Source: Rickettsiales bacterium (lineage in GTDB: Bacteria > Pseudomonadota > Alphaproteobacteria > Rickettsiales > UBA3002). From it: a stretch of DNA of 64,000 nucleotides. The translations under genes and the position numbers were made by a program. The first letter of the stretch is position 1. Each line of letters starts with the position of its first letter. The stretch lies in contig JBIIEL010000006.1 in assembly GCA_044237845.1 (NCBI GenBank), forward strand, positions 4,124 through 68,123, in the 5' to 3' direction. Under the pieces are notes generated by a model, which saw only the letters and a list, made by a program, of their open reading frames with translations, made no database searches and was not told the DNA's origin. Positions 3,743 to 20,925 of the stretch are shown here, piece after piece.

Positions 3743-4512
3743 AAGGGCTTACACAGAATCATGAATAAGTGATTCCATGTCGCAGGCAGGCCTTCTGGCG
3801 TACGCAGCAATTCATATGCTTCGGCCATTATTCTCCAGCGTTTTGCGCCCATCAACCCCTGTGAAGAGCGTGTAAAATTATTTCCCGCGCCAATATCACG
3901 CATCGAATCCATCAACACACGAAGCGTGGCGTAATGACGTATTTCACAGGAGGACGTTGCCATGGTAATCTCAAGCCCTACTTTCCTCGCCGCAGTTTTA
4001 TATTCCTCGACGTCACGCATTGCGAGCAATCCCAGCGGCAATGCAGCTACATCCGCAGCCTGGTGCAATTCCGATAATGTTCCTTGCGCAAGCGTGGCCA
4101 AAATCACACGCCCTCCCGGCCTCAGCACGCGGTTGATTTCACTCATTCCAGTATCAAGCTGCGCTACCCATTGCAGACAGAGCGAGGACACCACCGCATC
4201 ATATGAGGCATCCGCGAGCGGCAACGCCTCCGCATCCGCCTGAATTGTAGTGCAGCGCGCGCGTGCAACTTTACACATCCCCTCTGCGATATCGACCCCG
4301 GTGATCTGCCAATTGGGCTGTGTGGCCGCACTCATCTCTGCGAATTGGCCCGTACCACAGCCTACATCCAGAATATTCGCCTGTGCAGAAACCAACATAT
4401 GCGCAGCATCCACCACCCGTGCGGTTTGTGTGTGCTGAAAGTTGGCACGCACATCGTAATCAGCCGCGTTACGACCAAAATTCTCTATCAGACGGGCGCG
4501 GGCAATGGTCAT
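3739..4512 (-). CDS. bioC: malonyl-ACP O-methyltransferase (BioC type SAM methyltransferase)
   Basis: SAM motif ILDVGCGTGQF, about 257 aa. It has 4-nt overlaps with both bioH and bioD. Confidence 0.75.
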   Translation of the reverse strand: MTIARARLIENFGRNAADYDVRANFQHTQTARVVDAAHMLVSAQANILDVGCGTGQFAEMSAATQPNWQITGVDIAEGMCKVARARCTTIQADAEALPLADASYDAVVSSLCLQWVAQLDTGMSEINRVLRPGGRVILATLAQGTLSELHQAADVAALPLGLLAMRDVEEYKTAARKVGLEITMATSSCEIRHYATLRVLMDSMRDIGAGNNFTRSSQGLMGAKRWRIMAEAYELLRTPEGLPATWNHLFMILCKPL

Positions 4513-16654: not shown

Positions 16655-18478
16655 ATGTGTGGCATCATTGGTGTTATTGGCAATCAACCTGCAGCAGCGC
16701 TGGCGCTCGGTGCATTGAAACGTCTGGAATACCGCGGCTATGATTCCGCTGGCATCGCCACGCTGGTAGATGGACGCATCGAGCGTCGCCGCGCGCAAGG
16801 CAAACTAGCTGCGCTGGAGGCAGCACTGACTGCATCCCCCCTTGGTGGCACATTGGGCATCGGCCACACGCGCTGGGCGACGCACGGACTGCCGAATGAG
16901 ACCAACGCCCACCCGCACGCGACGGATAAAGTGGCGGTGGTGCATAATGGCATTATCGAAAATTTTCAGGAGTTACGGGCGGAGCTGGAGGCACTGGGGC
17001 ATCGCTTCACCAGCCAGACGGATACCGAGGTGGTGCCACAGCTCATTACCCTTTACCTGGCACAGGGCAAATCACCGCGCGAAGCAGTGAGTGCCACCTT
17101 AAAGCGTCTGCATGGCGCTTTTGCGCTCGGCATTATTTTTGCCGATGCGCCGGATGTGATTTATGCCGCGCGCCTTGGGTCACCGCTCGCCATCGGTCTT
17201 GGTGAGGGCGAAAACTATCTCGGTTCCGACGCGGTGGCGCTCGCCCCCCTCACCCGCAAGATTTGTTACCTCGCGGAAGGCGACTGGGCCGAAATTCGGC
17301 GGGAAAGCGTAACGATTTATGACAAAAACGATGTCGTGGTTGAACGTCCTTATAAAATCAGCGCCCTCACCGGCGCCTCGACGGGCAAAGGCGACTACCG
17401 CCATTTCATGCAGAAAGAAATTTACGAGCAGCCCTCCGTCATCGGCCAAACGCTCAACGTCTATTATAATCCCACCACCGCGCGCGTAGCGATGCCTGCA
17501 CTGCCGTTTGACCTTAAAGATATTACCAATATCACCATCGTCGCCTGCGGCACGTCCTACTATGCGGGCCTCACCGCACGTTACTGGATTGAGGCGCTCG
17601 CCCGAATCGCCGTCGATATCGATGTGGCGTCGGAGTTCCGCTACCGCGAACCGGTGATGCAAAAGAATGGCCTCACCATTGTTATCTCGCAATCTGGCGA
17701 AACGGCAGATACCCTCGCCGCGCTGCGTTATGCCAAAGCGCAAGGGCAACATACGCTGGCCATCGTCAACGCGCCGGAATCCAGCATGTCGCACGAGGCA
17801 GAGGCCACGCTCTACACCCATGCGGGGCCTGAAATCGGCGTCGCGAGCACCAAAGCCTTCACCACGCAACTCACCGTGCTCGCCTGCTTCGCGCTGGCGC
17901 TTGCCGATGCACGCGGCACACTGAATGCTCCTGAAATGGCGCGCCTCACCCATGCGCTGGCAGAAGTGCCTGCCCGCGTGGCCGAGGTGCTGCATAACGG
18001 CGAGGAACTGGAAAAACTCGCGCAGAAAATTCAGCACGCCAAAGACATGCTCTATATCGGCCGTGGGACAAGCTTTGCCATCGCCCACGAAGCCGCGCTC
18101 AAGATGAAAGAAATTTCCTACATTCATGCCGAGGCTTATGCGGCGGGCGAAATGAAGCACGGCCCTATCGCGCTGATTGACAAATCCGTGCCAATTATTG
18201 CCATTGCACCCAAGGATCACCTGTTCGAAAAAACCGCGAGCAACATCCAGGAAGCCGCCGCACGCGGTGGCCGCATTATTGTGATGTCAGATGCCGAGGG
18301 TATCGCCGCGCTAGGCAATATCGTCAGCGAATCGATGACGCTGCCGACGGTTCATCCCTTCGTAACGCCGATTCTCTATGCGATTCCGGCACAACTCCTC
18401 GCCTATTATACAGCAGTGCTGAAGGGTACGGATGTTGATCAACCGCGCAACCTCGCGAAATCAGTGACCGTTGAATAG
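16655..18478 (+). CDS. glmS: glutamine--fructose-6-phosphate aminotransferase
   Basis: MCGIIGVIG N-terminal nucleophile, two SIS domains, and the C-terminal LAKSVTVE. Confidence 0.95.
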   Translation: MCGIIGVIGNQPAAALALGALKRLEYRGYDSAGIATLVDGRIERRRAQGKLAALEAALTASPLGGTLGIGHTRWATHGLPNETNAHPHATDKVAVVHNGIIENFQELRAELEALGHRFTSQTDTEVVPQLITLYLAQGKSPREAVSATLKRLHGAFALGIIFADAPDVIYAARLGSPLAIGLGEGENYLGSDAVALAPLTRKICYLAEGDWAEIRRESVTIYDKNDVVVERPYKISALTGASTGKGDYRHFMQKEIYEQPSVIGQTLNVYYNPTTARVAMPALPFDLKDITNITIVACGTSYYAGLTARYWIEALARIAVDIDVASEFRYREPVMQKNGLTIVISQSGETADTLAALRYAKAQGQHTLAIVNAPESSMSHEAEATLYTHAGPEIGVASTKAFTTQLTVLACFALALADARGTLNAPEMARLTHALAEVPARVAEVLHNGEELEKLAQKIQHAKDMLYIGRGTSFAIAHEAALKMKEISYIHAEAYAAGEMKHGPIALIDKSVPIIAIAPKDHLFEKTASNIQEAAARGGRIIVMSDAEGIAALGNIVSESMTLPTVHPFVTPILYAIPAQLLAYYTAVLKGTDVDQPRNLAKSVTVE

Positions 18479-18479
18479 T

Positions 18480-19178
18480 CTAGAGCGCGATCAGAGGCAG
18501 CAATAACGCACCAGCCGCATAGATAACCACGCGCTTTGTCTTGGGCACGAGTAATTTTAGTACATAAATGGGCAGAATAAACTTCCACAGCGCAAAAGGA
18601 AGCAGCGCCCCCATCAAGGTGAACCACCATATCCACGGCTTGGTGAAGGGCGATGCTTTATTGCCTGCCGCACGATACATAAGCAACGCGATGACAAGCA
18701 TCACGAAGCCGGTTTGAATGAATCCGTAAATGGTTCCCTCGGCCAGCGTGCGCGCGAGCGCCACCGCCATGAGTGCGTAGGAATAAATGCTCGAGGAAAT
18801 CCAGCCCTGCTGCCAGTGAATTGCGGCGAGAATGAGTACCATCGTGCCATAGAATGTGTAGAGAACGAACGGCTCGCTGATACCGAAATGCAGGAAATAA
18901 GCGATAAACATGACGCCGCATACTGCCTCGATCACTGTATAGAGCGCCGGGATTTCACCCGTACAATAACGGCATTTACCGCGTGTCATCAGCCACGAAA
19001 GGATAGGAAAAAGGTCAATCGGGTTCAAATCTGCATTGCAATGCCCGCAGAACGGATGACGCTCGAACGGTGTTTTCCCAAGCGGAAGACGATACACCAC
19101 TGAACAGGCGTAATTCCCAACTGCCGGGCCAATCACCAGCATCATAATGATGCCGATAAGGGTAAATTCCCCGATCAA
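18480..19178 (-). CDS. prepilin peptidase (A24) homologue lacking both catalytic aspartates
   Basis: The N-terminal Cys4 domain is clear (VVYRLP...CGHCNADLNPIDLFPILSWLMTRGKCRYCTGEIPALYTVIE). The polytopic C-terminal region contains no Asp at all. Confidence 0.7.
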   Translation of the reverse strand: MIGEFTLIGIIMMLVIGPAVGNYACSVVYRLPLGKTPFERHPFCGHCNADLNPIDLFPILSWLMTRGKCRYCTGEIPALYTVIEAVCGVMFIAYFLHFGISEPFVLYTFYGTMVLILAAIHWQQGWISSSIYSYALMAVALARTLAEGTIYGFIQTGFVMLVIALLMYRAAGNKASPFTKPWIWWFTLMGALLPFALWKFILPIYVLKLLVPKTKRVVIYAAGALLLPLIAL

Positions 19179-20413
19179 TTCATGACCGTGGCTTTGGGAT
19201 TGATAACGCTGTCAAGGTAACGCCCCTGAAAGAGGGTAAGCCCCATCGCCTGACCGAATTCTACCGCCTTTTGGGTATCACAGCGGGTAAGAATCACCCG
19301 ATTACTGCCACATTGTCGAATTGCCTCGCGCAAAGTGCGGTTTTTCTCGGAATCCAAGTCGGTTTCATTATCCGCATTCCACATCAATTTAATAAAATCA
19401 AACCCTAAGCGATGACGGTCGATCTGCGGGAAGCTTAGCTCCGTCACTCCGTCGAGACAAACGCGATAACCTAACTTTTGCACCGCTTCTTTCGCGACTA
19501 AGAATGCCGACATGTCTGCAAACACATCTGCAATCTGCAGCTCCATGACAATCGATACTTTCATACCAGGTTTAATTGCCGCATCAAATTCTGTAAAGCG
19601 CGAGGAAAGTAATGTCGGTATGTTCAAATTAAGGCTAACCGGACTAATCAGATACCGGGAAGGGCTCCGCTGAATTGCATCAAACATCCGCTCATCAAGA
19701 ATTTCCGTGAGATATCTGAATAGCCAACGATTTGAAAGGATGTCGACTTCAATCCCCATACTTTGACGCAGATGGTTAATGTTGATATACATTTCATCGA
19801 ACACCGTGCGCATGGTAGTATTCGGAATTGCTGCACATACCGGCTGGCGACGAATCGTCGGCGAAATATCGATATTACGCATGTCACGCTCAATCGCAGC
19901 AAGGCTTGCTGCGGTGAAGAGTTTCATATTCTTCGGTGTGGCTTCGCGGCGTGATTCTTTACCAATTTTGGCGGGCTCAAAGATACCCCCTCTTGCGTCA
20001 CGCAAACGAAGAACAAGACGCCGCTTGCAGATATCCATAAAATCATGCCACTGGGTCTCCATGTCGTAGAGCGTTGAGAACTCTTTATTCTCATCTCCCT
20101 CCACTGTGTAGGCCAAAGGATCATCCATGAATAAATAACGGAGCTGGAAAATCATTTTTTCCATTGTCATTTTCTGCAAATGCCTGACCACAACGTAAAT
20201 CGTACAGTCATCACAAATATAAATCGCACCATCAAGATCGCCTATCAGGTCGTTCATGAGGTTAGTTGAAATCTTGATCTGGTATTCACTGCGATAATGC
20301 TCGAGCAGTTTAGAGAACGAGAAGCACAGCACCTGCCAACCATCTCGACTTCCCTCAATCAAGTTGAGAAGCTCAATTAGCCGTGCCTCTGCCTCTCTAT
20401 TTACTATACGCAT
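19175..20413 (-). CDS. degenerate EAL-domain-like protein with unknown N-terminal domain
   Basis: The C-terminal about 220 aa align by eye with EAL landmarks, but most catalytic residues are replaced: RRQPV, LNLN, VMELQIAD, CLDGVTE instead of DDFGTG, IKLM instead of LKID, TRCD instead of EGVE, and LFQGRY. AGGGGA lies 5 nt upstream of the ATG. 4-nt overlap with the peptidase-like gene. Confidence 0.55.
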   Translation of the reverse strand: MRIVNREAEARLIELLNLIEGSRDGWQVLCFSFSKLLEHYRSEYQIKISTNLMNDLIGDLDGAIYICDDCTIYVVVRHLQKMTMEKMIFQLRYLFMDDPLAYTVEGDENKEFSTLYDMETQWHDFMDICKRRLVLRLRDARGGIFEPAKIGKESRREATPKNMKLFTAASLAAIERDMRNIDISPTIRRQPVCAAIPNTTMRTVFDEMYININHLRQSMGIEVDILSNRWLFRYLTEILDERMFDAIQRSPSRYLISPVSLNLNIPTLLSSRFTEFDAAIKPGMKVSIVMELQIADVFADMSAFLVAKEAVQKLGYRVCLDGVTELSFPQIDRHRLGFDFIKLMWNADNETDLDSEKNRTLREAIRQCGSNRVILTRCDTQKAVEFGQAMGLTLFQGRYLDSVINPKATVMN

Positions 20414-20424
20414 GGAATCCCCTG

Positions 20425-20925
20425 CTAGCGGCGGCGTTTCTTCTTCGGACGATCATCGTCGTCATCATCCTCATTATCTTCATCCTCTTCCTCGTCGTCC
20501 TCGTCTTCCATATGGTCTTCAAGGTCATCCACGAGTTTATCGTCTCCTACCATTTCGGCGAACATTTCGTCGTCCGCATCATCGGAATTGGGGTCTTTCT
20601 CGTCGTCTTCGTCGTGCTCTTCTACTTCTTCAAGCGAGGTGAGCTCGACGCTATCGTCATCCATCGGCTCAAGATCCATGCTGTCATCACCATCCTCGAC
20701 CTCAGGCAGATCCACATCCTCGCCGAGCATTTCTTCGTCTTTTGGTTTACGCACGGGCTTGGCAACGGGCTTCACCTCTTTCTTAGGCTTCGCCACTTTT
20801 TTTGCCGCATCACGCCAGCTATGCGCACATTTCGGGCATTTCACCGGATCGGTGGCTCCGAAATCATAAAATTTGGCGTCGCACTTTGGACAAATACGTT
20901 TTGTGCCTAAGTTCTGAGACGTCAT
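20425..20925 (-). CDS. TIGR02300 (FYDLN_acid) family zinc-ribbon protein with acidic tail
   Basis: LGTKRICPKCDAKFYDFGATDPVKCPKCAHSW followed by a long Asp/Glu-rich C-terminus. Confidence 0.75.
   Translation of the reverse strand: MTSQNLGTKRICPKCDAKFYDFGATDPVKCPKCAHSWRDAAKKVAKPKKEVKPVAKPVRKPKDEEMLGEDVDLPEVEDGDDSMDLEPMDDDSVELTSLEEVEEHDEDDEKDPNSDDADDEMFAEMVGDDKLVDDLEDHMEDEDDEEEDEDNEDDDDDDRPKKKRRR

Follow-up and report, generated by a model that had tools for sequence, protein, structure and literature searches.

Why should a bacterium maintain, as one overlapping gene pair, two proteins that lack the catalytic residues of the enzymes they resemble? The question is raised by a locus in a stretch of 64,000 nucleotides (nt) from a Rickettsiales bacterium (GenBank assembly GCA_044237845.1, contig JBIIEL010000006.1, forward-strand positions 4,124 to 68,123), the whole of which we call the window. 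A preliminary description of this DNA had placed here two open reading frames, 18480..19178 and 19175..20413, that overlap by 4 nt; coordinates and overlap are as it gave them, and both frames lie on the minus strand. We label their products EAL*, a 412-amino-acid EAL-like protein, and PilD*, a 232-amino-acid PilD-like protein. The reading we favour, tentatively and at a little less than an even chance, is that the pair is a non-enzymatic, membrane-tethered second-messenger receptor module, resembling LapD split in two chains. The genes and their junction are:

19175..20413, minus strand: EAL*, 412 amino acids, soluble, with two domains that lack catalytic signatures (open reading frame, Pfam, AlphaFold2 (AF2), Foldseek, hhalign)
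18480..19178, minus strand: PilD*, 232 amino acids, a polytopic membrane paralogue of the prepilin peptidase PilD (Pfam, hhalign, MAFFT, AF2)
19175..19178, minus strand: junction TTGA, 4 nt shared by the two frames, in which PilD* begins with TTG and EAL* ends with TGA (open reading frame positions)

This stop-start overlap gives translational coupling of EAL* and PilD*. We assign the TTG as the start codon of PilD* because the 11 open codons 5' of it hold no ATG, GTG or TTG, and because PilD* orthologues align beginning at residue 4-6.

PilD* matches the Pfam family PF06750 (A24_N_bact) with 76 bits over residues 15-98, covering profile positions 1-84 of 84, in agreement with the N-terminal four-cysteine domain of prepilin peptidases that had been proposed for it. 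The cysteines of its zinc ribbon are spaced C44-x2-C47-x21-C69-x2-C72, and G67-K68 precede the third of them. No match to the peptidase A24 family PF01478 was found in PilD* of the window or in orthologues from two other families; the true A24 genes of the same genome score 59 and 44 bits with that profile. The only Asp residues of PilD* are D50 and D55, with none after residue 55. We aligned 72 PilD* sequences with 21 canonical PilDs from genomes that also carry PilD*. The hhalign probability of a relationship was 100% for the global alignment; restricted to the membrane part it was 88% (E 3e-6), with the register unchanged, and MAFFT with the 21 canonical PilDs agreed in placing the catalytic columns at H121 and W182. 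Both aspartates of A24 peptidases are indeed missing, as the preliminary description had claimed. The parts of PilD* that matter here are:

18885..19136, minus strand: A24_N domain, residues 15-98, comprising the end of the first transmembrane helix (TM1), the cytoplasmic zinc ribbon and TM2 (PF06750 and invariant columns)
18816..18818, minus strand: codon of His121, in the column of the first catalytic Asp, canonical xDLEHxIIPD (hhalign, global and transmembrane-only; MAFFT)
18633..18635, minus strand: codon of Trp182 in the motif KPWIWW, in the column of the second catalytic Asp, canonical GxGDVK (hhalign, MAFFT)
18735..18752, minus strand: motif R143-T-L-x-(D/E)-G, continuing TIYGF, between TM4 and TM5 (conservation)

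Judged from the alignment, PilD* cannot cut prepilins, because both catalytic Asp residues are replaced. Across the PilD* family the first catalytic column holds H, Q, E, N, L or Y and the second W, D, Y, P or K. One homologue of 295 amino acids (P0150) has an insert of about 50 amino acids, of low complexity and rich in Pro, Ser and Gly, in the cytoplasmic GxGD loop, directly preceding the motif SPFDKPWIWW. Catalysis was probably lost early in the PilD* clade, since the catalytic columns vary freely and P0150 tolerates an insert in this loop.

The membrane core of PilD* is nevertheless homologous to that of PilD: a profile of the transmembrane part only, which gives at least 56 bits with PilD*, still finds canonical PilDs at 27-50 bits. 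The AF2 model of PilD* (predicted local distance difference test (pLDDT) 95.3, predicted template modelling score 0.91) has TM1, the zinc ribbon and about six more helices. Foldseek found no significant match to this model in the PDB, so that the homology of the core rests on the profile comparisons. The family also has a mark of its own, RTLx(D/E)GxIYGF, which is absent from canonical PilD; its R143 is nearly invariant in PilD*, and the motif is common to those PilD* that are adjacent to EAL* and those that are not. It would face the periplasm, judging from the helix order of the AF2 model and the cytoplasmic position of the zinc domain (PMC3584216).

The pseudo-enzyme status of PilD* holds for the peptidase function only. 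PMC3584216, citing Pepe and Lory 1998, ties the CxxC-X21-CxxC motif and the Gly and basic residues before the third Cys to zinc-dependent N-methylation, not to cleavage, and all known N-methyltransferase determinants of PilD are retained in PilD*. PilD* could instead be a paralogue of PilD that acts as a methyltransferase only, N-methylating pilins pre-cut by canonical PilD, or another membrane substrate, with EAL* regulating or targeting it. The A24_N domain, with its Cys spacing and Gly-basic pair, is the most conserved part of PilD*, as this reading expects, and in three genomes of the bacterial family f22 (gene order prs, cytochrome c, PilD*, ahcY) PilD* immediately precedes ahcY, the gene for S-adenosylhomocysteine hydrolase. 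However, a canonical, bifunctional PilD (DLEH, GxGDVK) with a zinc domain of its own is encoded in every complete genome with the pair; the methyl-acceptor site is thought to lie near the peptidase site, which in PilD* is remodelled to the aromatic PWIWW; and the ahcY adjacency is limited to one family and may be inherited synteny. We consider a methyltransferase-only role, the chief alternative, unlikely.

In EAL*, the preliminary description had recognized the landmarks of an EAL domain with most catalytic positions substituted (LDGVTE, KLM, TRCD), and profile-profile alignment to canonical EALs reproduced these. The underlying EAL similarity is supported by AF2 and Foldseek, together with a PF00563 score that is borderline: 31.2 bits over residues 234-400 (31.8 bits in a six-frame search), against a cut-off of 31.3. 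The AF2 model, computed from 74 sequences, has a mean pLDDT of 90.7. In the PDB, Foldseek matched it to the EAL-only chains of FimX, YahA, PA3825 and LapD-EAL with E of about 1e-7 to 1e-8 over about 260 columns and probability 1.00, and the matches include FimX and LapD structures bound to cyclic di-GMP (c-di-GMP). Sequence and profile searches of the PDB sequences with EAL*, PilD*, the alignment of the N-terminal domain and the full EAL* alignment returned nothing usable. EAL* is divided as follows:

19988..20413, minus strand: N-terminal alpha/beta domain, residues 1-142, with a predicted GGDEF-like fold (AF2, Foldseek)
19913..19987, minus strand: flexible interdomain linker, residues ~143-167 (pLDDT below 50 for residues 143-159)
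19178..19912, minus strand: degenerate EAL domain, residues 168-412 (hhalign against 28 canonical EALs, AF2, Foldseek)

The linker differs in length among homologues, one of which (P0106) has a long insert.

We mapped the motifs of the EAL domain with hhalign against the 28 canonical EALs, all from the same bacterial family, and by inspection of the first two strands. Eight positions are kept: Q190 (the Gln of YQP), E207 (the Glu of EAL, which reads EMY in EAL*), N264 (the metal-binding Asn), E291 (the first Glu of ExxE), D321 (the first Asp of DDFG), K342 (the Lys of KxD), D379 (the last Glu of EGVE, here Asp) and Q396 (the Gln of QG). Other positions are lost: N211 replaces the Arg in ExLxR, I294 the second Glu in ExxE, M344 the Asp in KxD and T376 the general-base Glu; the second Asp and the Phe of DDFG are deleted, and loop 6 is gone. 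The kept residues are invariant in the 74 sequences, which share 36-94% identity, except for D379, which is at least 90% conserved, and in the AF2 model each sits at the C-terminal end of a barrel strand. EAL* is predicted to be inactive as a phosphodiesterase because the EGVE general base is lost (T376), a loss that predicts inactivity of EAL phosphodiesterases (PMC12900916). The first metal site and the nucleotide contacts of the pocket are retained, with the catalytic base, the Asp for the second metal and loop 6 missing, a combination that points to ligand binding without turnover.

Could both proteins still be hydrolases that use non-canonical residues, His121 or a Glu in PilD* and a one-metal mechanism in EAL*? 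Some PilD* orthologues (L125, L110 and L085) have an acidic residue, Glu or Asp, close to both catalytic columns, and EAL* has its first metal site and K342 intact. But the freedom with which the PilD* columns vary, the insert of about 50 amino acids that P0150 accepts in its GxGD loop and the absence of the EGVE base from EAL* (PMC12900916) all speak against residual hydrolysis, and we hold it to be extremely improbable.

A different objection is that EAL* may bind no nucleotide at all and serve as a protein-protein adaptor of the YdiV type, its pocket residues being kept for structure or partner binding. The loss of the ExLxR Arg, of loop 6 and of several signature residues would fit such a role, as would the borderline hidden Markov model score and the many family-specific invariant residues outside the canonical pocket (R92, Y93, D98, D296, R333, W345 and R372). 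Yet the first-metal ligands E207, N264, E291 and D321, with K342, Q190 and Q396, are invariant over 36-94% identity. Such conservation would be difficult to account for if EAL* bound no metal and no ligand. For binding c-di-GMP, LapD and FimX make do with a smaller set of those pocket residues. We therefore think it unlikely that EAL* works without a nucleotide. As for possible docking sites on EAL*, its C-terminal tail, NPxxxVxN, was considered as a motif specific for PilD* and rejected: it also occurs in orthologues that do not adjoin PilD*, some of them in genomes that yielded no PilD*.

The N-terminal domain of EAL* had been called unfamiliar. In sequence it is, with no match to PF00990 and an hhalign probability of 0.7% against 28 canonical GGDEF domains; in predicted fold it probably is not. 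The best Foldseek matches to the whole of EAL* are tandem GGDEF-EAL proteins, led by Vibrio cholerae LapD (6pwj, E 5e-13) and followed by MorA, PA0861, Pseudomonas fluorescens LapD and DosP, over about 440-470 columns, so that the query is covered entirely. In the AF2 model the order of strands and helices fits a GGDEF-type fold, with CDDCT (residues 67-71) at the position of the GGDEF hairpin, and the motif FQLRYLFMDDPLAY (residues 89-102) is invariant. We describe the domain as a predicted resemblance to the GGDEF fold and not as membership of the family, because the sequence-level GGDEF signal is absent.

The same N-terminal domain occurs elsewhere. It stands alone in proteins of about 156 amino acids (L205:1656-2126(-), L206:1762-2235(-)), and is fused to a C-terminal CheY-like receiver, identified by eye, in proteins of about 290-318 amino acids (L200:1661-2608, L201:1687-2643, L202:1322-2200(-), L203:1588-2490, L204:1537-2397, L207:1621-2535). 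This order, the reverse of the usual REC-GGDEF, suggests that the domain is an independent signalling module.

Both genes are under strong purifying selection and are not decaying. Each protein has hundreds of homologues at 60-97% identity, and the ratio of nonsynonymous to synonymous substitution rates (dN/dS) against the closest relative is 0.018 for EAL* and 0.072 for PilD*, with dS near saturation; the observation is not a product of chance. Pseudogene decay was rejected on these ratios and on the intact reading frames in dozens of genomes.

A survey of gene neighbourhoods found the two genes adjacent in about 50 distinct loci from at least seven families (f1, f9, f11, f18, f20, f29 and f34), with gene order and strand kept across these seven, and so supports the co-occurrence that had been suggested. 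The intergenic gap is at most 30 nt in 53 of the 67 related loci listed, some of which are duplicates, and 26 of the 53 overlap. Where public contigs hold enough downstream sequence and EAL* is at least 44% identical, PilD* follows at nearly every locus; the exceptions are L087, L092, L100 and L116.

It could still be that EAL* and PilD* function independently and form no complex, their adjacency being a matter of operon organization only. Both families widely occur alone, and in one genome (G018) of an otherwise paired genus the two genes lie on separate contigs. Against this, the same-order adjacency, with overlaps or gaps of a few nt, persists in at least seven families while the flanks change, as in genera g1 and g2, where an AsmA-like neighbour is lost. 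We regard independent functions as very unlikely. What had been described as two pseudo-enzymes kept together therefore stands as to the loss of the defining residues, the selection and the coupling; the togetherness is not absolute, each family being found also by itself.

The distribution of the two families was followed in samples of 151 genomes of the order and 301 genomes of the class. Close homologues all come from uncultured alphaproteobacterial metagenome-assembled genomes (labelled Rickettsiales, Alphaproteobacteria or 'Azospirillum') of 1.5-2.5 Mb. Within the order, EAL* is present in 84 of the 151 genomes and PilD* (at 56 bits or more) in about 60. In the class sample, full-length EAL* at 30-36% identity was found in 105 of the 301 genomes; its hosts include genomes of 4-6 Mb and cultured bacteria such as Oceanibaculum pacificum, where it is annotated as 'hypothetical' (AUP43_14525). 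No strong PilD* match was found outside the order in the class sample, a single borderline match being a canonical PilD. In a global representative library PilD* forms 95 clusters at 50% identity (E <=1e-30), and GxGD is lacking in at least 104 of the best 133 full-length PilD* representatives. PilD* occurs without EAL* in all seven of the seven f22 genomes, and many genomes have EAL* without PilD*. The f22 PilD* (L179:3342-4094, L180:3472-4209(-), L193:3553-4311) has an Asp near the first catalytic column and not near the second. NCBIfam has no family for either EAL* or PilD*.

Outside the order, many alphaproteobacteria have two tandem EAL* paralogues (for example G175:C17:603-3087, G391:C17:55334-57871 and G218:C2:4670-7271). 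One protein of 712 amino acids (P0325) has the N-terminal domain and then two EAL* domains in a single chain; it was considered as a Rosetta-stone fusion with PilD* and rejected on this composition.

How might such a pair work? We infer that EAL* would bind, without hydrolysing, c-di-GMP or a related nucleotide, that it would contact PilD*, and that an output would follow. PilD*, a putative duplicate of PilD that arose within the order, would serve as a membrane anchor or pseudo-protease scaffold; translational coupling would have the two proteins made in step; and EAL* would dock on PilD* from the cytoplasm, with the zinc domain as the probable site. The organism probably makes c-di-GMP, because its genome has two strong GGDEF matches and one canonical EAL.

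Several results weigh against this receptor module. The phosphate-binding Arg of ExLxR is N211 in EAL*, and because this Arg is lost the binding of c-di-GMP is not assured. The PF00563 score of EAL* sits exactly at the Pfam threshold, and the EAL* profile search against PDB sequences gave no matches. The EAL* and PilD* families are separable and their pairing is not obligate. PilD*, with its methyltransferase determinants kept, may yet have some other enzymatic activity. Finally, no pilus genes lie near the EAL*-PilD* pair in the neighbourhoods examined.

The genome of the window (G000) has two true A24 genes besides PilD*, one of the canonical PilD type (TDLEHTIILD and GLGMGDVKF; C45:2100-2741(-)) and the other encoding a short CpaA-like peptidase (C23:11661-11963(-)). 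It also has a PilB-PilC pair with PilT copies and a Tad-type locus (C33:15705-18073, C52:34157-37090), so that type IVa and Tad pilus systems both appear to be present. A link of the pair to type IV pili is plausible; the gene neighbourhood gives it no support.

The receptor-module reading draws on known systems. Structurally, the complete EAL* model comes closest to LapD of P. fluorescens and V. cholerae (6pwj, 6pwk, 3pjw), a degenerate c-di-GMP receptor that signals inside-out and is likewise a tandem of a non-catalytic GGDEF-like and an EAL domain that acts at the inner membrane, the last being for EAL* a proposal. LapD, however, is one chain with transmembrane helices, a periplasmic domain and HAMP, whereas EAL* begins directly with its alpha/beta domain, has no transmembrane or HAMP segment and would have its membrane part in a separate, PilD-derived protein. 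EAL* differs further in that its N-terminal domain lacks GGDEF sequence similarity, its first metal site is kept and its ExLxR Arg is lost. The EAL domains of FimX from Pseudomonas aeruginosa and Xanthomonas are also among the structural matches (3hv9, 4fok, 4j40). FimX is a degenerate GGDEF-EAL receptor of c-di-GMP that controls type IV pilus assembly (PMC5595344). Like EAL*, it is a non-catalytic protein of c-di-GMP type with a tie to one member of the type IV pilus lineage; but FimX also carries REC and PAS domains and works via PilB or PilZ, and the candidate partner of EAL* is a PilD paralogue. PilD* itself shares with PilD/XcpA (peptidase family A24A) the full A24_N zinc domain, identical Cys spacing and a homologous polytopic core, and departs from it in having neither catalytic Asp nor GxGD nor a PF01478 match and in having RTLx(D/E)GxIYGF.

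In a bolder version, PilD* would be an intramembrane pseudoprotease of bacteria, the first one in the GxGD clan, and would bind prepilin-like or other single-pass membrane clients without cutting them, EAL* and a cyclic dinucleotide switching between capture and release. We think this quite unlikely. The iRhoms and Derlins, membrane pseudoproteases of eukaryotes, offer an analogy only: there too selection has preserved a polytopic intramembrane protease fold whose catalytic residues are gone, but they belong to the rhomboid clan, which is unrelated to the GxGD aspartyl clan. In the literature we found no paper that describes a catalytically dead prepilin peptidase, a pseudoprotease link or a pairing with a degenerate EAL.

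On the minus strand the order of genes is the TIGR02300 gene, a gap of 11 nt, EAL* and PilD*. The upstream gene is:

20425..20925, minus strand: TIGR02300/FYDLN_acid zinc-ribbon protein with an acidic tail (PF09538, 45.9 bits)

The spacing of 11 nt agrees with the preliminary description (reading frames and Pfam). No promoter-like site was found between the TIGR02300 gene and EAL*, and the two are probably co-transcribed because they are on the same strand, directly adjoining, with this short gap. This upstream gene precedes EAL* only in genera g1 and g2. On the other side, the stop codons of the convergent glmS (plus strand, 18478) and of PilD* (minus strand, 18480) are 1 nt apart (window 18476-18482). 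No terminator-like hairpin was found between these stops, and therefore the transcripts must overlap or end inside the opposite gene.

Convergent glmS follows the pair in many families, and EAL*-PilD*-glmS is an old synteny, not an island. The pair is indeed lower in G+C than its surroundings, as had been noted (EAL* 0.462 and PilD* 0.516, against 0.546 for the window; glmS 0.58), but neither this nor the position wedged between glmS and the TIGR02300 block is the mark of an insertion, the order of EAL*, PilD* and convergent glmS being conserved across families. Recent horizontal acquisition, suggested by the low G+C, was rejected on the conserved glmS synteny and on other native genes, whose G+C is similar to that of EAL* and PilD*.

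In most families EAL* is preceded by an AsmA-like gene (PF05170) of about 900 amino acids (for example L024:5184-7874(-), L026:386-3166). We did not find this gene in genera g1 (that of the window) or g2, and a complete single-contig genome is among those without it; these genera have only a distant AsmA of 685-734 amino acids, or none. A dependence of the pair on this neighbour was rejected, since it is missing from both genera.

Where EAL* orthologues are distant (identity of 45% or less), a gene of about 300 amino acids follows instead of PilD*. In the two loci checked it encodes a PAS-degenerate-GGDEF protein, and recG then follows in several; this adjacency puts EAL* in another gene context of c-di-GMP type. 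The PAS-degenerate-GGDEF genes, with SDYT, GANKV and the like in place of GGDEF, lie directly upstream of recG at L042:4755-5726 and L049:2385-3287(-); in several other families of the order this unit comes right after EAL*. The window's own genome has a PAS-GGDEF*-recG unit at a separate locus (L007:1009-1989, contig C29).

Degenerate GGDEF-EAL receptors are known, whereas we did not find described in the literature a prepilin-peptidase paralogue that is under selection without both catalytic Asp residues. Both families are sizeable and unnamed. Roughly one in three of the alphaproteobacterial genomes sampled has EAL*, among them those of cultured organisms of Rhodospirillales type, and the protein evolves extremely slowly (dN/dS ~0.02). 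If PilD* were a methyltransferase only, the two activities of PilD would have been separated in nature; if it were a pseudoprotease, the pair would be a second-messenger-gated counterpart of the eukaryotic iRhoms. Solving the function of the pair would give a role to a widespread family now annotated as 'hypothetical' or 'EAL domain-containing', and could reveal a new coupling of second-messenger sensing to the inner membrane.

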